A DNA stretch of 29,773 bases from Methanobacteriota archaeon (GTDB lineage Archaea; Thermoplasmatota; Poseidoniia; Poseidoniales; Poseidoniaceae), in contig WTIV01000096.1 in the NCBI GenBank assembly GCA_011525095.1, positions 1 through 29,773 on the forward strand. Reading direction: 5' to 3'. This document shows positions 5,117 to 29,773 of this stretch, one piece after another. Position numbers and translations under genes: made by a program. The notes beneath the pieces are model-generated. The model worked only from the letters and a program-made list of their open reading frames with translations, was not told where the DNA came from and made no database searches. Numbering within the stretch: the stretch's first letter is position 1; every line of letters begins with the position of its first letter.

Positions 5117-7921
5117 TTATGCTTCAACAGAAACTCTCGACGTACTTGCTTCTTCAGCAAGTGACTTCTTTGCTTCAACCTGGCGTGCTAGGAATGATAC
5201 AACATCGAGAATCTCGATGTCATGCCTTTCATCGCCTTCGAACTTGAGACACTCAAAGTGAGAAACACACTTTGGACAGGATGTAATCATCATGTCTGCG
5301 CCAGTGTTGCGGATTTCCTCCATTCTGGATACTCTCAGTGCACGAGCGTTCTCATTACAAGACATCATGCTTGAGACACCACAGCACATTGCATCTTCGC
5401 CATGGTGCTCCATCTCTACGAGTTCAACTCCTTCGACTCCAGCAACTAGTTCACGTGGTTCATCATAGATACCCATCTGTCTACCTAGTCTACATGGGTC
5501 GTGATAGGTAACTGTCAATTCATCTTCTGCCTTCATCTGCATGTCGAATCCATTTTCGATTAGGAATTCTGTTGTATGCATGACTTTGACGCCTTCTAAT
5601 TCGTAATCACGAGCGAATGTTCTGAAACATTCAGCGCATGAGGAAACTAGTGTGTCAATTCCGGATGCTTCGATCTTCTTCTGGTTGTATGCCTTGAGTT
5701 TGTCAAACACCTCATCAAGACCTTGCCACTTCTGGTCGTGTCCACAACACTTCAGGAAGTCACGTCCGAGATATGAGACATCTGTTCCCATCTCTTCGAA
5801 TAGTGTGAATGCTGCAGTTGTTGTTTCTCCTAGGTCCATCGAGCCTTCGTTTAGGTGGCTGAACACCATCTCTTGGTCTAGGTAGTCTACACATCCTGGA
5901 TAGTAGCCGATGTTTGAATCGATTGGGTAATCTTCGACTGAAACGAAATCAGCGTCACTCTCTTCCTCCGCTTCTGCAGCTAGTACTGCTTGCAGGACAG
6001 TGTGAGGGATTTCAGCAGCTGGACCACCGACGATCAACGAGCGGCGAATGTCAACATATGAATCGTAGTTGACCAATTGTGGACATGCGTTTGTACATGC
6101 AGTACATGTTAAACACGAATACAGCGGTACACCATCGTCTTCGTTATTCCATGAGTTGTAAATGATGTTCAACTTGTCACCAGCGTTGAAGAGTCTGACA
6201 GGACATGCATCGTCACATAGGTCACAGCCGTAACACTTGTTCATCTCGAACTCATATCCACGAGCCATGTTTCTCAATACCACGAATGTGATTGCACCTG
6301 CGGTAATACAAGGGATGAACATAGCATAAGTCAACTTAGCATCCAATGCTAGAGGGTTAGTGTGGTAAGTTGGGTTTACGATAACTCCCATGTTCTCACC
6401 TTCTAACTCCATGTTCAGGGAGTTAGATAGGTCGACAGTCATTCCAGCAAGACCGTTTCCAGCATCGTCATCATAGAGAAGAAGTGGCTGGAATGCTTGA
6501 ATTGTGAATAAGGTTTCAACAGTAACTGAATTGTTTGCTCTTAGGCCATCTGTTGATTCTACCTTAAACTCATAGTCGTATGTACCTGAAGCAAGTTCAA
6601 TTCCTAACTCACCTGTGTTACAATCGGTATTGACTACAACGTCGCCACTGTCTCTCTGTGTGATAACTAGGCTTGATTGAATCATTCCAGAGGTGGAGTC
6701 TCCACCATCAATTAGAACTTCACTCGCTCTTGTAGCACACGTAGCGTCTAGAGGTACTGTAGTGAAGTCGTTGTCTTCAGGCCAGTAATCATCGGTGATG
6801 ATGAACGAACCTGTTGCCCATACAGTTTCATCAGCAGAATAATTCTGTAGTCCAGATTTACCATTTACACCAGAATCTAAATCTTGGTGTCCGTTATTGT
6901 CTGAGAAATCAATGAGATAATACCGCGTTGGTTGGTATATGTTCCAATCCATCCATGCAGCTGCCGGAACTATGTCTCCATCGAATCCTTGCAGGTCCAT
7001 GAATTCGGTTCTCTCATTTACTTGAACATCGGTTGGTTGTGACCTCATCTCTTCCAATTTCTCATAATCGGAGATTGTTAGCAGTCCCTTTGCATCCCAG
7101 AATCCGTTATCGTAAACCGGGTATGTGACAACGCTTGCAGCAGTTGCAACGATGAAAGCACCAACGATGAGTTTCTTGCCGTGTGCTGGAGTGAATCTTG
7201 CACCCCATGCGTTGTTGAATAGCCACTTGGCGATGAAGTAGATCATTATCCAAAGAAGAATACCTGTCATTACCCAGGGTATCATGTTGAATAAATCAGC
7301 AATCCACGGGTCTCTCACACCACAGAGTAAATCACCATGGCTGTCTAACTTACAGAAGTCGCTTCTATTCTTCCCATACAATTCAAGGAAGATGTTGATT
7401 GAGAACACTGAGATAAACCAAATGTGAGCTAAGTAAACTACACCTGCACTAGCAAACCATGGGTCTTCAACAGGCCTCTTCTCACGACCGCCTAGGAATG
7501 GAGGTAGTGCTAGGATACCGACTGGGATTCCAGTGAGGAAAGCACCCCACCATGCAGCGTTCCATGGGAAAGATGGCTGCCCAAAGAAATCACCAATTGG
7601 TCCTAAAGGTACGTCAAACTGAGGTAGATATTCTCCCCATCGTAGGTATCCGTAAGAAAACAGCACATACCAATCAGGGAAAACGAATCCTGCTTGAGCG
7701 AATGGGTCCGCTGCACTGTGAAGTGGTGGTGGAATTAACCACGCGTAGAATAGAAGTGTGCATATCATGAAACCGAAGATAAGGCTGTCACGTAGAACTT
7801 CGTGAGGCCAGAAGCCGTGTCCTTCACGAGTACGCTTACGCTTTTCTTCAGCAGACTGCAACTGCTCTTTTTGATCCATGTATGAGGATGCTACTGCTCC
7901 AAAATTGTCTATAATTCCCAA
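5117..7921 (-). CDS. Fusion: cytochrome b6 subunit IV (PetD-like) + extra TMs + extracellular domain + 2x[4Fe-4S] + two CCG domains (HdrD/GlpC-like)
   Basis: FWPHEVL...PDWY (Qo motif at 7667-7678); CYGCDLCDDACP and CLTCTACTNACP; YYPGC..CCGH..SSCAEC and YHDPCRLGR..CCG..TSCPKC. One uninterrupted 934-aa ORF with TTG start behind AGGAGG. Confidence 0.85.
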   Translation of the reverse strand: MGIIDNFGAVASSYMDQKEQLQSAEEKRKRTREGHGFWPHEVLRDSLIFGFMICTLLFYAWLIPPPLHSAADPFAQAGFVFPDWYVLFSYGYLRWGEYLPQFDVPLGPIGDFFGQPSFPWNAAWWGAFLTGIPVGILALPPFLGGREKRPVEDPWFASAGVVYLAHIWFISVFSINIFLELYGKNRSDFCKLDSHGDLLCGVRDPWIADLFNMIPWVMTGILLWIMIYFIAKWLFNNAWGARFTPAHGKKLIVGAFIVATAASVVTYPVYDNGFWDAKGLLTISDYEKLEEMRSQPTDVQVNERTEFMDLQGFDGDIVPAAAWMDWNIYQPTRYYLIDFSDNNGHQDLDSGVNGKSGLQNYSADETVWATGSFIITDDYWPEDNDFTTVPLDATCATRASEVLIDGGDSTSGMIQSSLVITQRDSGDVVVNTDCNTGELGIELASGTYDYEFKVESTDGLRANNSVTVETLFTIQAFQPLLLYDDDAGNGLAGMTVDLSNSLNMELEGENMGVIVNPTYHTNPLALDAKLTYAMFIPCITAGAITFVVLRNMARGYEFEMNKCYGCDLCDDACPVRLFNAGDKLNIIYNSWNNEDDGVPLYSCLTCTACTNACPQLVNYDSYVDIRRSLIVGGPAAEIPHTVLQAVLAAEAEEESDADFVSVEDYPIDSNIGYYPGCVDYLDQEMVFSHLNEGSMDLGETTTAAFTLFEEMGTDVSYLGRDFLKCCGHDQKWQGLDEVFDKLKAYNQKKIEASGIDTLVSSCAECFRTFARDYELEGVKVMHTTEFLIENGFDMQMKAEDELTVTYHDPCRLGRQMGIYDEPRELVAGVEGVELVEMEHHGEDAMCCGVSSMMSCNENARALRVSRMEEIRNTGADMMITSCPKCVSHFECLKFEGDERHDIEILDVVSFLARQVEAKKSLAEEASTSRVSVEA

Positions 7922-7937: not shown

Positions 7938-8804
7938 TCAATGCGGCTCCGCTATTCCTTGAACCCATACAATGAACAAATGTATGATGATTAGAGTTGT
8001 AACGATAACTGGTAGAATGAATACGTGAATGAAGTACATTCGTGTTACAGTTCTGTGTGAGAGGGAGGAACCAGAGAATAGTAACGTAGCGATGTACTTT
8101 CCAATCAATGGTGTAGCGTTTGCTAGGTTAATTCCGATAACAGCAGCTCCGTATGCCAGTGTATCCCATGGAAGTAGATATCCTGAGTAGCCGAAGACAA
8201 TTGTTAGTGCCATTAGAGCAACACCGATTAGCCAGTTTAACTCACGTGGATTGCGGTATGCACCAGTAAAGTATACTCTGCACATGTGTAAGAATACTGA
8301 TGCTACCATGAAGTGTGTACCCCAGTGGTGTACCGCACGGATGATGTAACCGAATGGAAGTTGTGTCATGATGAATTGCATACTCGCATATGCAGGGGAT
8401 GGATCACCCTCTCCACCTGGGACATAGTAGATTCCGAGAACGGTTCCAGTTAGTACTAGAATGATGAATGATAGGAATGAAATTCCACCCAAGCAATACA
8501 ATGGGTACCAATACCAAATGATACGGAGCTTGTATTTCTCTGCGTGTGTTAGAGGCATCTGTCTGTGCATGTTGTAGTATGCACCCTTGGACATATTCCA
8601 GTAGTCTTGAATCCTAAATCTAGTATCCAAGAATGAGAATACCCACAAGAACGCACGCTCAGCGAATCCCATCTTGCCGCTGGATTCAACAGCACGCAGA
8701 ATTTCTCTGCGAGGAATCTCTTCGTTTTCTTTGCGTAGAGTAAACGCAATCAAGACAATAATGAATGCTATGAAGAACCAAAGTACCCAGAAAATCGTGC
8801 TCAA
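7938..8804 (-). CDS. petB: Split cytochrome b (cytochrome b6 / PetB type) with N-terminal TM extension
   Basis: YCLGGISF, RAVHHW, FLHMCRVYFTGAY, RELNW, GYLLPWD, FIHVFILP...IIHLF, C-terminal QGIAEPH. All four heme-b His ligands are present. TTG start behind GAGGTGA. Confidence 0.92.
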   Translation of the reverse strand: MSTIFWVLWFFIAFIIVLIAFTLRKENEEIPRREILRAVESSGKMGFAERAFLWVFSFLDTRFRIQDYWNMSKGAYYNMHRQMPLTHAEKYKLRIIWYWYPLYCLGGISFLSFIILVLTGTVLGIYYVPGGEGDPSPAYASMQFIMTQLPFGYIIRAVHHWGTHFMVASVFLHMCRVYFTGAYRNPRELNWLIGVALMALTIVFGYSGYLLPWDTLAYGAAVIGINLANATPLIGKYIATLLFSGSSLSHRTVTRMYFIHVFILPVIVTTLIIIHLFIVWVQGIAEPH

Positions 8805-8813
8805 ATTATCACC

Positions 8814-9662
8814 TCAGTCGCAGTAGGTCAACCAGCCCGTGTAATCAGAAGACGCTTCGATAGTGTCTCCGTTCATAATGATTGGAATGATTGGTAGTCC
8901 AAGAGGCGCAGGACCACCAGCTCTTCTGATACCTAGGTATTCGAAAGAAGCACCAGTTGACCTGTTTGCGTTTCTGTTGACCTCGATCGCAGTTGGGTCG
9001 AATCTGCTGGAGTGGCAGATGCAGAACATTTTGCTTCCACCATCGTCTCCACCACCTGGGGTCCAGTTGTCATCTGTCTGAGTGTTTGATACAAGTTGCC
9101 AACCTGGGATACAGCACAGGTGTGTGCATCTTGCAAAGCTCATGACGAGGTTGTTGTTTGGGTCGAAGACTTCCGAGTTTCCGAGCAAGAATTCAGTTGC
9201 GTGGCCAACGTAGTTGCCACCGATGTCGTAACCTGCCATTTCTTGGAATCTTGGTAGGTTGTCTGCTACAGGCTTACCTGAGTTTTCAGCGTGAGGTACG
9301 TAGTTGACGATTACCGGTAGTCCATTCCAAACACCTTGTGCACCAGCCATGCCAACGTTTGAGTTGGCGGCTTCAGATTCGAAGTCTGACTTCATCATCG
9401 GTTGAAGGTGCTTAGCTCCATACCATGCTTCTTCTTCACGACCCTTTGCCCAGTAAAGAACTGAAGAGTCTCCTCCTCCACCACCGGATGGTGGCATCAG
9501 GATCGCAGCGAAACCTAATGCTCCGAGCGTTGCTGCTAGCACACCGCCAGCAGCGTTGAATCCGTATCGCATGAATTGCCTACGGTTAACCGAGACTTCA
9601 CCGAGTGAACCTAGAACTGAGTCTTCAAGTGATGGTGCTGGTCTTAATCTCCTGTCGTCCAT
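8814..9662 (-). CDS. petC: Rieske [2Fe-2S] protein with Tat signal-anchor
   Basis: VNRRQFMR twin-arginine motif plus TM helix and Gly-rich hinge; box 1 CTHLCC (9111-9128) and box 2 CICHSSRF (9012-9023). ATG at 9662 behind GGTGA is preferred over the ORF-track start at 9734, which overlaps the upstream gene. Confidence 0.9.
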   Translation of the reverse strand: MDDRRLRPAPSLEDSVLGSLGEVSVNRRQFMRYGFNAAGGVLAATLGALGFAAILMPPSGGGGGDSSVLYWAKGREEEAWYGAKHLQPMMKSDFESEAANSNVGMAGAQGVWNGLPVIVNYVPHAENSGKPVADNLPRFQEMAGYDIGGNYVGHATEFLLGNSEVFDPNNNLVMSFARCTHLCCIPGWQLVSNTQTDDNWTPGGGDDGGSKMFCICHSSRFDPTAIEVNRNANRSTGASFEYLGIRRAGGPAPLGLPIIPIIMNGDTIEASSDYTGWLTYCD

Positions 9663-9666
9663 AATA

Positions 9667-10119
9667 TCACCACTTGTATTCTCTCCAATCCTTCTGATGT
9701 TCAGGGATGTACTTGTTCTGGCTATGCTTGACAATGATTGTGTCAGGCAACACGAATTTCAGATAGATGATTCCCATCATAATCAGGGTTGTAATGCCCA
9801 TGGCCATGTGATAGGATAGTTGCTGTTGGTCCCAACTAGAGCCGTTGAGCAGCCCGTATAGCATAGTTCCAAACCAGTACAAGGCCCAGAAAATTCCCCA
9901 TGAGAAGAAGAATATCGTAAGGGCAGATTTACCCGATGGTGCCAAAGATGCTGAGATTACTGTACCTGGTTCTGCTGGATTGAATACTCCGTGATTAATC
10001 GCAGCATCCATCTGTTCTTCAGTGAGTGATGCATCTTCTAGTGCTGTGCGAGCATCCTTGACGCTCACCTTACCTGCAGCGACCTTCTCAAGCAGTTGTG
10101 TGATCGTGTCTTTAGCCAT
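9667..10119 (-). CDS. Hypothetical 2-TM protein, translationally coupled within the Rieske/cytb operon
   Basis: TGATG overlap with the upstream gene; its stop overlaps the Rieske RBS; short helical N-terminal domain followed by two TM helices. Confidence 0.7.
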   Translation of the reverse strand: MAKDTITQLLEKVAAGKVSVKDARTALEDASLTEEQMDAAINHGVFNPAEPGTVISASLAPSGKSALTIFFFSWGIFWALYWFGTMLYGLLNGSSWDQQQLSYHMAMGITTLIMMGIIYLKFVLPDTIIVKHSQNKYIPEHQKDWREYKW

Positions 10120-10922
10120 CACTGGTCACCTCTTCTGTTAATCTTGTATCTCAGTCTCAGCAAGTTGCTGCGGCCTTTGTAAGATGTTGAGAACCCGTAT
10201 CTTAGGAGGAGTCCACAGAATACAATCACTGCGATTACTGCGCCAAATCCTAGTAGTCCAAGCCAGTGTGCTCTGAAACCAGCACCAAGTGTCGAGATGT
10301 CGATTTCCCCGGCTTTACTTTCTGGTGCTTGTGGAGTTCCGCTTCCTGCGATTAGGGTTCTATCTCCTCTCTTATCATCTGCTGGCGCTTCTATTAGATT
10401 GAATACAATCTGGTTCCAATAATCTCCAGCGGGTCCGTCTGCTCCATTGACAGCGTTTCCGCTAATCCAGAAGTCGACAGTTGTTCCGCTAGAATTGTCA
10501 GCAGGTGCGGTCCATGTAAGTTCAAAGATTCTTGAGTTGGGCGATTGGTGTGTTCTGGTTGCTGCATCATCTTCCCATGCTTCGCCATCACCGGACCATT
10601 CTCCTGCGCTGACTCTAGCAGAGAATCCACCCATGTTAGTGTCCGGGCCACCGATGACTTCCAATCTCATGTCATACTCTGTATCTGCGACCCATGTGTA
10701 TGGGACACCGACAAGGAGGACCATGACATCGTTACTTGGCTGTTCTCCATGGCATAAACAACCCTCTTTGGCTACGTCATCGATTGTTTCTCCATTGTGA
10801 GAATGACCGCCAGCTCCGATGCCGTCTGGGTATGCGTTGGTGATGCCCGGCAAGAGCATCAAAGTTACAAGCACCATAGGCAGGAGACTTCGTTGGAAAA
10901 CCTTCGACATTAGCATCGCCAA
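10119..10922 (-). CDS. Exported Reeler-like (choice-of-anchor V-like) protein with CLCH motif and C-terminal membrane anchor
   Basis: Signal peptide ending ...GITNA; GHSH and GCLCHG; LTWTAPA..VDFWISGNAVNG..GDYW matches Reeler-like domains from memory; TM HWLGLLGFGAVIAVIVFCGLLL. Start could be 10922, 10916 or 10910. Confidence 0.7.
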   Translation of the reverse strand: MAMLMSKVFQRSLLPMVLVTLMLLPGITNAYPDGIGAGGHSHNGETIDDVAKEGCLCHGEQPSNDVMVLLVGVPYTWVADTEYDMRLEVIGGPDTNMGGFSARVSAGEWSGDGEAWEDDAATRTHQSPNSRIFELTWTAPADNSSGTTVDFWISGNAVNGADGPAGDYWNQIVFNLIEAPADDKRGDRTLIAGSGTPQAPESKAGEIDISTLGAGFRAHWLGLLGFGAVIAVIVFCGLLLRYGFSTSYKGRSNLLRLRYKINRRGDQ

Positions 10923-11070
10923 CCCCAGTGTTTAATCGGACTTGGATTGCGCCTATAATCGTTCCCTGCAGTTTCATCTAAGGGTTGCCGAGCAGTGTAA
11001 CATTTTGGCCCGTTTTTTTGCCTAAACATCCAAAGGCAAATCCTATGTTGATTTCCCCCTTGGTGTGACT

Positions 11071-11376
11071 ATGTCAGACCATCCTTTTGAGAACACCTAT
11101 GACCTCTCAAATGAACAACTTATCAAACTTGAGGAAGCAGAAGAGGAAATGCTTCGAAACAATCTTGGAAAATCTGAGGAAATTCTTCTCGAAATGTTAG
11201 AAGATGATGATGAATGCATACCGGTTTTGAACAATTTAGCGCATTTGTACGGAAGGCATTTTTCTGATTTTGAAAAAGCTGTAGAACTTTACGACAAAGT
11301 TTTGAGGCTTGAACCTGATAATGCTTGGGCTAGGGATGCTAGACGTCGCTATCAGAGATATGTGGGCAGAGATTGA
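11071..11376 (+). CDS. Small TPR-repeat protein
   Basis: VLNNLAHLYGRHFSDFEKAVELYDKVLRLEPDNAWA fits the TPR consensus. Confidence 0.8.
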   Translation: MSDHPFENTYDLSNEQLIKLEEAEEEMLRNNLGKSEEILLEMLEDDDECIPVLNNLAHLYGRHFSDFEKAVELYDKVLRLEPDNAWARDARRRYQRYVGRD

Positions 11377-11401
11377 ATAACCTCCTTGACGAGGGTTGGA
11401 T

Positions 11402-12331
11402 ATGGATGGCGCCCAAATCCTGATTGCAGGCGTCGGTGGATTGGGCTGCTCATGGGCAAAACGTGCCCACTCAAGAACAGGGCACGGCATTGACTTGGTA
11501 TTAATTGACGCAGATGAGTCTTCATTTGACTATCCAGAAGCTCACGTTATTCGCTTGGGTAAGGACTTGGATTCAACTGGCTGCGCAGCCCTTCCACCAC
11601 TAGGTGAGCAGAGGATGAGGCAGGCCTCTTCTGTATCTAGAACCCTTCTGAATGAAGTAGAGTTGGTGGTCCTGCTTACAGGTTTAGGCGGTGGGACAGG
11701 AACTGGTGCCTCGTCGGAATTTGCTAGACAAGCAAGGTTATCAGGTGCGATTGTGATATCGATTGCAGCAATACCTTTCGAGGCACAAGAAGCAAGATTG
11801 AAAGTGAGCAACGAGGGACTTGCAAGGTTGGAATCCAACTCAGATGTTTGTGTAAGATTGAGTCTAGATAGATTGGCTTGGCAAGCAAGGGAAAGAGGAA
11901 CAGATTGGAGGGTCGGAGCATCCTGGGTTGAAGAATTCGTTGAAGGATTGGTTAGGACTTTGATGAGACTTGGCCTGATTAATCTCGATATGATGGATCT
12001 AAAAACAATTGTTGGTCACTCCGGGGGTTCTACTCTTATGGTTGGCCAAGGGGATCCAGATGATGCAATTGGACTTCTTGAGGATGCTCTTAGTGCCCCA
12101 CTTGCAGATTTGTCTATGGATGGTGCTAAGGCCTGTTTACTCCAAATTGAGGGAGGCCCGGGCATGACTGTTGGACAAGTCGGTTTGATCGCAGACGCTT
12201 TCACTGCACGGTTTGATGAAGATGCTCAAGTTATCCTAGGTGCTCGTGTAAGTGATGACTTACAAGGCAGAATCAGGGTGGTTGCGGTGGTATCAGGTCT
12301 AGAAGAAAAATCCAATCTTAGTTTAGTCTGA
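11402..12331 (+). CDS. Divergent FtsZ/tubulin-family GTPase
   Basis: IAGVGGLG, signature GLGGGTGTG, PFEAQ, T7-loop GLINLDMMD and C-terminal GARV...RVVAVVSGL. Short, with no C-terminal tail. An alternative TTG start lies at 11396. Confidence 0.85.
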   Translation: MDGAQILIAGVGGLGCSWAKRAHSRTGHGIDLVLIDADESSFDYPEAHVIRLGKDLDSTGCAALPPLGEQRMRQASSVSRTLLNEVELVVLLTGLGGGTGTGASSEFARQARLSGAIVISIAAIPFEAQEARLKVSNEGLARLESNSDVCVRLSLDRLAWQARERGTDWRVGASWVEEFVEGLVRTLMRLGLINLDMMDLKTIVGHSGGSTLMVGQGDPDDAIGLLEDALSAPLADLSMDGAKACLLQIEGGPGMTVGQVGLIADAFTARFDEDAQVILGARVSDDLQGRIRVVAVVSGLEEKSNLSLV

Positions 12332-26531: not shown

Positions 26532-29500
26532 ATGGGCAAGCGTGGCTTCATATCCGTGATGATAGTAGCAATTTTCCTAAGTAGCATATTTGCGGTTTCC
26601 GATTACAGTGAACTTTCTGATTATAAGAAAGTGCTCTTTGCTGATTCTGAACCAGAGTTACTTATCTCTGCGGGTTCCGCTACAGGCCACGTTAATGGGT
26701 CAGAGATTGAATGGACTCCACAGGGTATAGTTGTTGCAGGTGATACTAGAAACAATCTAGATTTTGGTGGAATTCAGTTACAAGCTACATCTGGTTACAA
26801 CCCGTATTTGGATGCGGATTCCTATGTCGCTATGGTTGATGAGCAAGGAAATTGGCAATGGGCAGTAATGCCTTCTGCGACTCAAGGCCTAACCTTGATC
26901 AATGACATGACAACCGACTTGGCGGGGGATATCTACATTGGTGGATTGGTATTTGGTCAGGTAGTCTTCGGCTCATCATCAAATTCACCAGTTTTACAAT
27001 CGCAAAATTTTGATGGTTTCGTAGCAAAACTCGACGCTAGTGGCCAATGGTTGTGGGCAACTTCATTCAGTACTGCAACCAATAATGATTCAAACCAGAG
27101 TAGTGTTACAGGTATTGAATTTGACCCATATTCAGGAAATCTAATCGTAGTTGGGACACATCAAGGGCCAACAGATTTTGGTGGGACCACTCATACAAGT
27201 TCAGACAATGATGTGTTTATGGGAAGTTTCAATACAAACTCTGGAGCACTAAATGCAGTCTTTACTGCAGGAGGAATTGGCGATGATCGATCATCTGGAG
27301 TTGTAGTTGATTCATACGGTAACATATGGCAGACAGGAACAACATCTGGCACATTTTCAGGAAATGGAAAGACACACCAAGCTCTCAGTCAGGCGGACAC
27401 AATCCTAGTGAAGTGGAGTCAGGGCGGAGTTGTTCAAAGTGTCAAAGGATTTGTTAGTGCTGCAGGTGATATCAACCTCCCTGAAGATCTCACTATCGAC
27501 TCTAATGACGATATAATCGTGGGAGGAGTATTCCTTGGTTCGATGGATGCAGGCAATCAAAACACACTAACAGATAAGGGCAATGGCGATGCTTATGTTG
27601 TTAAAATTGCAAATAACGGTCAAACAGACTGGGCTGTAAGCGCAGGTAGTAGCGCCTCTACAGAAAGGGCATATGCCGTTGAAGTAACTTCAAATGATGA
27701 CATAATGGTCGGAGGATTAATTTCAGGTTCTGCTGATTTCGGTGTTCACTATGCAACATCTAATGGTGGACTTGACCTCTACATGGCTAAATTAACTGCA
27801 AATGGTGACTGGGATTGGGTAGAAAATCTAGGAAGCACAACAGATGACTTGTTTGCTGACTTGACGGTCAACGATACAGACATTCCGTATGCGTTTGGTT
27901 CATTCCAATCCACAATAAACAAAGGAACACAATCAGTGACAAGCAGCGCAGGCTTAGACTTGGTAATCTGGTCCCTTGATCCAATCAACAACGCAGATTC
28001 AGATAATGACGGTGTCATAGACTTAGAAGACAATTGTCCTAACACCAATAATCCGCTTCAAACCGATTCAGATTTGGATGGGGCGGGAGATGAGTGTGAC
28101 AATGACGATGACAACGACGGAATCACTGACAACTCAGGTGATGATTGCCCTAGAGGAGGTGCGTGGAATTGGACTAGCGATTCTACCACCGATTTCGATA
28201 ATGATGGTTGCAGAGATTCTACCGAAGATACAGACGACGACAATGATGGAGTTGAAGATGAGGATGACGGTTGCCTAAGTTCGTACACCCCTCCAAGAAA
28301 TTGGTGGACTTCAGATTCATCAAATGATCTCGATGGTGATGGTTGCAGAGATGCTGACGAAGATTCAGATGATGATGGAGATGGATTTAACGATGCAGAA
28401 GACGATTGTAACAAGGTGTCTGGTACTTCCGACCTAGGTTCCTACACAGGTTGTGTTGATTCAGATAGTGATGGATATGCTGACCTAGAGGACTCTTGCC
28501 CACAAGAGGAAGGTAACTCAACACTTGGTGGTCTATTGGCATGTCCGGATAGCGATGGTGACGGCTGGGCCAATTCCATAGATGACCTTCCTAGCGATGC
28601 TACTCAATGGAGTGATGCAGACGGTGATGGCTATGGCGACAACCCTAACGGAAACACTCCTGATGACTGTATCTCTACTCCAGGAACTTCTGTTTTGGAC
28701 AGGTATGGCTGCCCAGATACCGATAATGATGGATATTCAGCTGCGGATGATGACTGGACGATAGAAGACGGTGCAGACGCTTTCCCAACAGATAATACGC
28801 AATGGTCAGACTGGGATGAAGACGGATTTGGTGACAACTATGGTAACCTCTCTTGGATTGATAGAAGTGAAAACTGGCCGGGTGAATACTACCAGTATGC
28901 TAGAGACCAAGATGCCTGTCCCACATTAGCAGGCGATTCATGGCAAGAAGATATCCTCGGATGCCCAGATAGTGACAGCGACGGTTGGGCAGACTTCATG
29001 GATGCATTCCCAGCGGATCCTGATGAATATCTTGACTCAGATAATGATGGAGTAGCGGATGGAAATGATGACTGTCCTCTTGTGAATGGAAACTCAACAA
29101 TCGACGTTATAGGCTGCCCAGACTATGATGGAGATGGTTGGGGTGACCCAGAAAAAGGTACAGATTGGAAACCGATTGACCCAACTCAGTGGGCAGACTC
29201 TGACAGCGATGGCTATGGTGACAATCCAGCTGGAACAAGTCCAGACTCATGCACTAATGAAACAGGATTCTCATTCAAAGGCGATGTTCTTGGTTGTATA
29301 GACACAGACAACGATGGTTGGGCTGATATTATTGATGCATTCCCTGAAGAATCGAGTCAATGGAATGATACAGATGAGGATGGATTTGGAGATAACCCAG
29401 CTGGTAAGAATGCTGATGAATGTCCCGAGATTGCTGGGGTTGCAAAAGAAAACGGTTGTGAAGCAATAGTCGAAGAATCTAGTGGAAGTATTCTGAAGTA

Positions 29501-29773
29501 CGGCGGTATTTCTGTCGGTGTTATTCTAGCATTGATTGTTCTGGTTCTAGTTATCTCAAGGGTGAGAGGAAAGGGAGAGGACAAGGATTGGGACGCTGGT
29601 ATCAACTTGGCAGGAGCAGTATCTCAACCTGCTATGCCTAACATGAATGCCCAACCTGCTATGCCAAACATGTACGCCCAACCTGCTATGCCAAACATGA
29701 ATGCTCAGCCTGATTATTCACAATATCAGCAACCTAGTGTTCAACCGGTCGTACAAGCTGCTTCTCCAGATCC
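26532..29773 (+). CDS. Large cell-surface protein: signal peptide + beta-propeller + thrombospondin type-3 Ca-binding repeats + TM + Q/P-rich tail; 3'-truncated
   Basis: Absent from the ORF track because there is no stop before the window end. Manual translation gives [18 protein letters not shown]..., repeated D-x-[YF]-V-x-K-L-D-x2-G-x-W-x-WA blades, 18 DxDxDG motifs and [21 protein letters not shown] at ~29499-29560. Confidence 0.92.
27996..29384 (+). repeat. Intragenic TSP3-like repeat array (18 DxDxDG motifs with paired Cys)
   Basis: Counted by manual translation from DSDNDG (27996) to DTDEDG (ending 29384). Confidence 0.85.
29625..29705 (+). repeat. 3 x 27-nt coding tandem repeat (QPAMPNM[N/Y]A)
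   Basis: caacctgctatgcctaacatgaatgcc / caacctgctatgccaaacatgtacgcc / caacctgctatgccaaacatgaatgct. Confidence 0.95.

Follow-up and report, generated by a model that had tools for sequence, protein, structure and literature searches.

A Reeler-like Cys-x-Cys-His protein heading the Rieske/cytochrome b operon of Marine Group II archaea: a candidate analogue of cytochrome f and c1

Introduction

Cytochrome f (PetA) of cyanobacteria and plastids is made with a cleavable signal peptide, begins with Tyr-Pro once mature, carries its CxxCH haem site at residues 21-25 and is held in the membrane by one C-terminal helix. Its ectodomain, about 250 residues long, consists of a large beta-sandwich domain and a small domain inserted into it, and its gene is linked to those of a Rieske protein and a split cytochrome b. 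Cytochrome c1, which gives complex III its anchored haem domain, and the cytochrome c domain that caa3 oxidases carry fused to subunit II are, in contrast, all-alpha class I proteins with a CxxCH motif and a Met ligand. Marine Group II (MGII) archaea, a still uncultured group that counts among the most abundant microbes in surface seawater, possess a cytochrome b and a Rieske protein and lack a canonical bc1 complex (Tully 2019, PMC6336850). Here we describe a protein with a Cys-x-Cys-His (CxCH) motif, encoded by the first gene of the Rieske/cytochrome b operon on contig WTIV01000096.1 (assembly GCA_011525095.1; 29,773 nucleotides, called the window below) of a member of the Poseidoniales, and we propose that it is the electron-accepting subunit of that complex.

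Related arrangements are known from other archaea. In haloarchaea, a halocyanin is encoded in a cluster with the Rieske protein and cytochrome b (Baymann et al. 2012, PMC3509893). Ignicoccus hospitalis has predicted monohaem cytochromes c of Reeler fold, in which CxxCH occupies residues 28-32 and His111 is conserved; their cluster 38 comprises Igni_1052 and a second locus, whose number is printed in two ways, Igni_0579 and Igni_0759 (Kletzin et al. 2015, PMC4429474). The same authors argued that a non-standard haem-c linkage is possible in haloarchaeal bc complexes (Kletzin et al. 2015, PMC4429474). By their published description, the Ignicoccus proteins resemble the one studied here in being archaeal, in having an N-terminal signal or membrane helix and an N-terminal Cys-...-Cys-His, in being modelled on the reelin-N domain of F-spondin, in having a conserved His about 80 residues downstream as candidate distal ligand and, for some members, in a C-terminal helix. 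They differ in that their motif is the canonical CxxCH, that no link with Rieske/cytochrome b or with an oxidase has been reported for them, and that they are themselves predictions only. The animal Reeler domains (PF02014, F-spondin) are without a GCxCH segment and bind heparin or matrix, and those solved are free of cofactor. Finally, the NCBIfam choice-of-anchor V domain (NF041895) has no function or cofactor assigned in its database, whereas in the organism studied here it is built into respiratory complexes.

Results

An exported CxCH protein heads the Rieske/cytochrome b operon

The open reading frame (ORF) runs from position 10922 to 10119 of the window on the minus strand and, counted from its TTG, encodes 267 residues plus a stop. 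Translation probably starts at Met3 (10916) or Met5 (10910) instead, since it is with one or the other of these Met residues that the orthologues start; the Atlas copy begins at residue 3. The N-terminus is a hydrophobic signal peptide of the Sec type, with neither a twin-arginine motif nor a lipobox Cys. Cleavage is predicted after A30 (ITNA/YPDG), the mature protein thus starting with Y31-P. Throughout the family the residue preceding this site is Ala, Ser or Gly, and in a 97-row alignment the mature N-terminus falls exactly three residues before the invariant G34. The sequences GHSH (39-42), GCLCHG (54-59) and NMGG (96-99) follow, C-L-C-H occupying positions 25-28 of the mature chain and its C-H positions 27-28. 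A hydrophobic helix (about 219-242) and a basic tail ending in RRGDQ close the protein. A first-pass annotation, made from the letters of the window alone, had listed the signal peptide, the three motifs, the C-terminal membrane helix and the leading place in the operon, and had likened the layout (exported, N-terminal motif, C-terminal anchor) to that of cytochromes c1 and f; these elements and this layout are indeed present.

The protein is a choice-of-anchor V / Reeler-like domain protein. It matches NF041895 with 76.2 bits against a cut-off of 42, residues 22-171 aligning to profile positions 3-146 of 150. It has no Pfam match, neither to a cytochrome c nor to a cupredoxin family, and none to PF02014 (Reeler) at E ≤ 0.1; two paralogues score 17.9 and 22.4 bits on PF02014, for which the cut-off is 21, and the family profile hits spondin chains at E 0.12-0.2. 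The first-pass assignment to the Reeler-like, choice-of-anchor V proteins is borne out by the NF041895 match, by the paralogue scores and by F-spondin being the top Foldseek match (see below). Homologues number 445 at E ≤ 1e-3, with at least 48% identity throughout the 120 best listed, and every one of the 151 Poseidoniales genomes has an orthologue, so that the reading frame is no chance ORF. A HMMER scan of 1.8 billion representatives returned 370 relatives. When the membrane anchor alone was used as query in a protein search, the 120 best matches were all orthologues, and a search for longer fused forms gave two proteins only, one of them a COX1 fusion. The anchor is also shared by fragments (P0129, P0142 and others) which appear to be chimeric or truncated gene calls.

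The operon contains, in the same direction, the genes of the CxCH protein, a 151-residue protein, the Rieske protein, the N-terminal half of cytochrome b and a 934-residue protein. The stop codon of the first gene overlaps the start of the second, which indicates translational coupling. This order of five genes is identical in 16 of 16 sampled genomes from three Poseidoniales families, and in other Thermoplasmatota (loci L083, L085 and L086) a GCxCH protein likewise heads a Rieske/cytochrome b cluster. The linkage to the Rieske gene therefore holds beyond the order. Contigs from three metatranscriptome studies, 90-95% identical, cover parts of the operon, the CxCH gene included. Because the identity is only 90-95%, they were assigned to relatives; as contigs are no proof of transcription, they hint only weakly that the operon is expressed there.

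The motif varies as haem-c attachment sites do

Within the Poseidoniales, GCLCH is invariant, and little or no variation is seen in H125, in the anchor helix and in the tail RYGFSTSYKGRSNxLRLRYKxxRRGDQ. Across the 97 diverse rows of the family alignment, the invariant residues are G34, C57, H58, G99 and D167, followed by C55 and W169 (95 rows each), N156 (93) and H125 (93, with Gln in the other four). The first-pass annotation had suggested aligning C-x-C-H, the GHSH histidines and a distal Met or His. The GCLCH segment and H125 stood this comparison; the GHSH histidines did not, as most orthologues have GEQSNA at this place, and neither did the Met of NMGG, which is mostly replaced (T-A-G-F), unlike the conserved G99-F100. 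Both were discarded as ligands. So was H219, at the start of the membrane helix: although invariant in Poseidoniales, it gives way to Tyr in four of five anchors read from other Thermoplasmatota.

The spacing of the motif was surveyed in 131 family representatives that include this region. The first Cys is separated from C57-H58 by one residue in 120 of them, by two in 4, and by four, six or eight in one representative each; in 3 others it is replaced by Ala (G-A-x-C-H). The statement in the first-pass annotation that members of the family often carry CxxCH had thus the wrong proportion, CxCH being the rule. All variants occupy the same alignment columns. Haem-c sites vary as CXnCH and AXXCH. 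A movable and even dispensable first Cys next to an invariant Cys-His is therefore variation of the haem-c kind, and it is poorly compatible with a disulfide or with a metal site requiring two Cys.

Larger members of the family also exist: in the closed genome G027, the segment L167 (G027:C1, 9095-12921, minus strand) encodes an 884-residue surface protein with an N-terminal choice-of-anchor V domain and GCTCH. It is directly followed, in the same segment, by an exported protein of 392 residues, matching no family model, with C-G-G-S-C-H (Cx3CH) equally far from its N-terminus.

The predicted ectodomain is structurally closest to cytochrome f

An AlphaFold2 model, built on the 97-row alignment (pLDDT 83), predicts an all-beta ectodomain of about 155 residues. 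Foldseek placed the Reeler domain of F-spondin first (2ZOT and 3COO; E 5e-5, TM score 0.6), with cytochrome f entries at E of about 1e-3. In a second structure search, independent of Foldseek and covering 48,161 representative chains, cytochrome f took ranks 1 and 2 (Z 10.3 and 9.5). On closer structural comparison the best 15 solved entries were all cytochromes f, with Z 9.4-10.5 and root-mean-square deviations of 2.9-3.5 Å (about 3.1) over 130-142 aligned residues; three Reeler-domain entries came next (Z 8.8-9.2 over 115-118 residues; VIA-align), and generic sandwiches reached at most 8.3. Residue 31 of the model (33 in one entry), i.e. the predicted mature N-terminus, was aligned to residue 1 of cytochrome f. 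As modelled, the domain is a Reeler-like sandwich, and among solved structures its nearest match is a haem protein of the same overall layout. The comparison with cytochrome f made in the first-pass annotation has in this way become a structural match of a predicted model, with Z up to 10.5.

The resemblance extends to the signal peptide, to the C-H about 25 residues from the mature N-terminus, to the single C-terminal helix, to the (here predicted) Y-P start and to the linkage with Rieske and split cytochrome b genes. The proteins differ in the motif, C-L-C-H here instead of CxxCH, and in the host, which is here an aerobic heterotrophic archaeon. Furthermore, the small domain of cytochrome f has no counterpart in the shorter ectodomain of the CxCH protein, since the alignments cover 130-142 residues and yet span cytochrome f residues 1-250. 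Compared with cytochrome c1 and the caa3 cytochrome c domain, which it resembles as a proposed anchored domain on complex III and, in the fusion described below, as a carrier domain attached to an oxidase, it is all-beta and has no conserved Met. The cleavage site fixed three residues before G34, together with the Y-P start, is at most suggestive of ligation by the N-terminal alpha-amino group as in cytochrome f. When the family profile was compared by hhalign with the verified N-terminal 54 residues of spinach cytochrome f, the probability was 6%, with C57-H58 falling on C24-H25. Sequence homology to cytochrome f is beyond demonstration. A literature search for a link between Reeler domains and cytochrome f retrieved nothing relevant. 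The consistent top structural match to cytochrome f is new here, as are the spacing census that includes A-x-C-H and the whole-genome CXnCH census presented next.

Poseidoniales have a haem-c maturation system and no canonical cytochrome c was found

Genes for CcmC, for a CcmA/B fusion, for CcmE (archaeal C-x3-Y motif, here C-P-S-K-Y) and for the start of CcmF were found in the genome, as were TlpA- and CcdA-like thioredoxins. CcmE was detected in 115 of 151 Poseidoniales genomes, and five genomes missed by the CcmE model all have CcmF and CcmC. The general model for class I cytochromes c (PF13442) scored above its cut-off in none of 59 high-quality Poseidoniales genomes. We also took a census of CXnCH motifs in G027 (1.6 Mb, 98.9% read). 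Its 11 ORFs with CxxCH comprise 3 thioredoxin-like proteins, 4 zinc ribbons or fingers, 2 iron-sulfur proteins, 1 ELWxxDGT repeat protein and 1 unassigned 482-residue SAP-domain protein. Exported proteins with an N-terminal CXnCH were limited to five members of the CxCH family and the one Cx3CH neighbour mentioned above. With Ccm present and no canonical cytochrome c found in Poseidoniales (PF13442 in the 59 genomes, the motif census in G027), the CxCH family is the only evident Ccm substrate.

The first operon position is a probable electron-carrier slot

The genome contains three paralogues of the CxCH protein. In one of them (L056, G000:C116:909-2479), the domain, with GCGCH, is fused in frame to oxidase subunit I (CoxI; PF00115, 295 bits), and not to subunit II as in caa3 oxidases. 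CoxII (PF00116) is encoded immediately upstream, with overlapping stop and start codons. One extra membrane helix joins the domain to CoxI, which gives the right topology, the domain being outside and the N-terminus of CoxI inside. The fusion is present, as frames of 770-800 residues without stops, in 37 of 39 high-quality Poseidoniales genomes. The other paralogues are a 316-residue form with three helices and a 212-residue form with a single anchor; the two non-fused copies lie near tatC/pntB (the 316-residue form adjoins tatC) or among unrelated genes.

A search of the genomes of the phylum with the anchor alone revealed a replacement of the domain. At locus L082 of genome G210, it is a cupredoxin (PF00127, 38 bits; H...C-E-I-H-x4-M) that sits on a homologous anchor at the same operon position, followed by a homologue of the 151-residue protein, by Rieske and by cytochrome b. 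The G210 anchor aligns to residues 197-243 of the CxCH protein with 40% identity, and its tail differs. A cupredoxin on the same anchor indicates that the first slot of the operon is a slot for an electron carrier. Like the haloarchaeal halocyanin, the G210 cupredoxin lies next to Rieske and split cytochrome b and is a proposed acceptor of Rieske electrons; both have a type 1 copper site (H...C-x2-H-x4-M), as opposed to a Reeler-like sandwich with GCxCH. The earlier proposal that the CxCH protein accepts electrons from the Rieske protein draws support from this replacement and from the CoxI fusion.

Other settings were read in more distant relatives. In genome G168 (L088, G168:C3, 7785-11049 and 210-3444), the domain is encoded third, after an NrfC-like protein and NrfD, with ccmC, ccmF and a multihaem cytochrome 5-12 kb downstream of this copy; a second copy lies between a multicopper oxidase and a plastocyanin-like cupredoxin. 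The distant representatives P0126, P0141, P0256 and P0185 had no readable gene context on their contigs of 2-3 kb.

Discussion

Taken as a whole, the interpretation given in the first-pass annotation is partly supported. That the CxCH protein is a subunit of the complex with an electron-carrier role appears highly probable. We are less sure that haem is covalently bound at CxCH, which we consider somewhat probable; we infer the cofactor, as well as the identity of its ligands and the direction and partners of electron transfer. Our preferred explanation, which we hold with a modest degree of confidence, is that the protein is a haem-c analogue of cytochromes f and c1, attaching its haem through CxCH and serving as the electron-accepting subunit of the MGII Rieske/cytochrome b complex. 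The protein would be exported unfolded by Sec, and the signal peptide would be cut before Y31. The archaeal CcmABCEF system would then attach one haem covalently at C55-x-C57-H58, by thioether bonding through C57 and usually also C55, with H58 as axial ligand. The sixth ligand would be H125 or, by analogy with cytochrome f, the amino group that cleavage sets free at the N-terminus. The C-terminal helix and the conserved tail would hold the beta-sandwich on the complex, where it would accept electrons from the Rieske cluster. These would then reach the copy of the domain that is fused to CoxI, either directly or by way of anchored paralogues or of blue-copper proteins.

Several observations weigh against this explanation. 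The comparison by hhalign of the family profile with 24 cyanobacterial cytochromes f gave a probability of 6.6%, which is non-significant; the large domain of cytochrome f belongs to a common class of beta-sandwich, and a Z of about 10, obtained with a model, is only moderately above a background of 7-8. The candidate ligand H125 is Gln in 4 of the 97 rows, and a full-text literature search yielded no case of haem bound through CxCH. The search for CxxCH proteins relied on Pfam and on motifs, which an unconventional cytochrome could escape. Outside the Poseidoniales, the presence of Ccm and that of the family do not always go together, since G210 has Ccm and no clear family member, while G168 has a canonical multihaem protein in addition to the family. 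Lastly, the genome studied here encodes three blue-copper domains of the plastocyanin/halocyanin type (G000:C191:10770-11021, C91:260-517 and C3:400-672). These domains, one of which sits in a 3486-residue open frame, are candidate mobile or surface electron carriers.

We considered the possibility that the protein does play this acceptor role but that its redox centre is a metal site, with copper or non-haem iron bound by C55, C57, H58 and H125. This is the main rival. Cys and His are classical copper ligands, archaea generally use copper carriers (PMC4122944; PMC3509893), a cupredoxin takes the place of the domain on the same anchor in G210, the TlpA/CcdA thioredoxin-like proteins could serve copper sites as well, and CxCH is, according to the same full-text search, without precedent as a haem motif. 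Yet a first Cys at a spacing of 1 to 8, or Ala in three representatives, beside an invariant C-H is ill-suited to a two-Cys site. There is no Pfam cupredoxin signal and no conserved Met, the order-wide CcmABCEF would be left without a substrate, and the best structural match is a haem protein, in which C24-H25 compares with mature residues 27-28 here. We regard the metal site as rather unlikely; the choice between haem and copper is beyond computation, and the evidence favours haem.

The protein could also be a structural or assembly subunit without redox function, in which a Reeler-like binding domain with a C55-C57 disulfide would tether the complex or bind an outside ligand. Such a role would suit the family name, which reflects surface proteins with interchangeable anchors (NF041895, NF041894), the many members that are large surface proteins with PKD, TSP3 or fn3 domains, and the cofactor-free state of the solved Reeler domains. 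A disulfide does not explain, however, the lone Cys of the three G-A-x-C-H representatives, and H58 stands beside C57 in 97 of 97 rows. Moreover, the domain was found in an electron-transfer setting wherever its context was examined (Rieske/cytochrome b, CoxI fusion, NrfCD, multicopper oxidase plus cupredoxin), which was the case for 2 of the 4 copies of this genome and for several relatives, the large surface-protein members being left out, and it is an electron carrier, the cupredoxin, that replaces it on the same anchor. We find a structural role improbable. Cys-x-Cys motifs occur in copper chaperones, and this feature, the fusion to CoxI, which needs insertion of CuB and haem, and the paralogue adjoining tatC would be consistent with a domain that delivers a metal or haem while the oxidase and the Rieske/cytochrome b complex are being assembled and has no part in turnover. 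But the latter complex has no need of copper, the substitute is a blue-copper carrier, which argues for electron transfer, and a stoichiometric, translationally coupled first gene product whose anchor and tail are so strongly conserved resembles a permanent subunit. A delivery function is thus very improbable.

The CxCH protein is a testable candidate for the missing acceptor of complex III in MGII, a gap that was pointed out previously (PMC6336850). If haem is bound at CxCH, censuses of cytochromes c based on CxxCH miss a whole class. Such a class may also bear on the 'haloarchaea paradox' of haem-stained bc subunits for which there is no matching CxxCH gene (PMC4429474). The structural match and the split cytochrome b together offer a lead on the origin of cytochrome f. 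A broader proposal, which we put forward as speculation and consider doubtful, is that choice-of-anchor V CxCH proteins are widespread, unrecognised beta-sandwich c-type cytochromes that replace the classical ones across the MGII respiratory chain, as complex III subunit, oxidase-fused entry domain and free carriers, and that they are true relatives of cytochrome f. If this were true, cytochrome f, so far an orphan, would gain a family and a likely origin.

Other genes of the operon and of the window

The features of the CxCH gene and the other genes of the operon are listed in Table 1.

Table 1. Positions in the window of the CxCH gene, of its parts and of the genes that follow it in the operon
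Feature	Positions	Strand	Basis
Whole ORF, choice-of-anchor V / Reeler-like, heads the operon	10119..10922	-	NF041895, 76.2 bits vs cut-off 42
Sec-type signal peptide, residues 1-30	10833..10922	-	Sequence and alignment columns
Predicted extracytoplasmic beta-sandwich domain, residues 31-185	10368..10832	-	AlphaFold2 model (pLDDT 83) and fold searches
C55-L56-C57-H58, proposed haem-c attachment site and axial His	10749..10760	-	Family alignments
H125, candidate distal ligand	10548..10550	-	93/97 rows, otherwise Gln; analogous to His111 of the Ignicoccus model (PMC4429474)
Second family hallmark, G-N-A-V-N-G ... G-D-x-W-N, residues 156-170	10413..10457	-	Family alignment
Membrane anchor (helix about 216-242) and cytoplasmic tail	10122..10277	-	Orthologue alignments and anchor searches
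151-residue protein, second operon gene	9667..10122	-	Weak DUF7318
Rieske iron-sulfur protein; twin-arginine translocation (TAT) signal, CTHLCC, CICH; likely start Met25 at 9662	8814..9734	-	
Cytochrome b, N-terminal (b6-like) half	7938..8804	-	PF00033, 147 bits
934-residue protein, fifth operon gene	5117..7921	-	Profile matches; alignment with other Thermoplasmatota

The 151-residue protein has a conserved soluble N-terminal part and two membrane helices, with W75-G76, W97, Q99-Q100 and P126-D127 invariant. It is likely to be a further subunit of the complex, because it is always second in the operon and is present also in the cupredoxin-headed cluster of G210. When the 151-residue protein and the N-terminal half of cytochrome b were co-folded with the anchor (residues 196-267), the score was 0.01, which is uninformative on binding.

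The N-terminal membrane part of the 934-residue protein aligns with ORFs that follow cytochrome b in other Thermoplasmatota. After this part come an insert of about 280 residues without a family match, a 4Fe-4S dicluster and two CCG domains (HdrD/TfrB/GlpC-like; NF004898, E 2e-33). The gene is present in 16 of 16 genomes, with an additional insert of about 1.3 kb at locus L037. It would be unusual for a Rieske/cytochrome b complex to have an HdrD-like cytoplasmic module built in.

Divergently from the operon, positions 11065-12331 of the window (plus strand) encode a TPR-like protein of 103 residues and a 311-residue divergent protein of the FtsZ/tubulin family, both kept in 16 of 16 genomes. 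This FtsZ-like gene, archaeal RNA polymerase genes and others nearby agree with the names of database homologues in assigning the window to a Poseidoniales (MGII) archaeon. The segment 12323-13645 (minus strand) encodes a 440-residue multi-pass membrane protein with an acidic tail, which matches no Pfam family at E ≤ 1e-5; the same holds for an ORF of at least 1080 residues at 26532-29771 (plus strand) that runs off the window.

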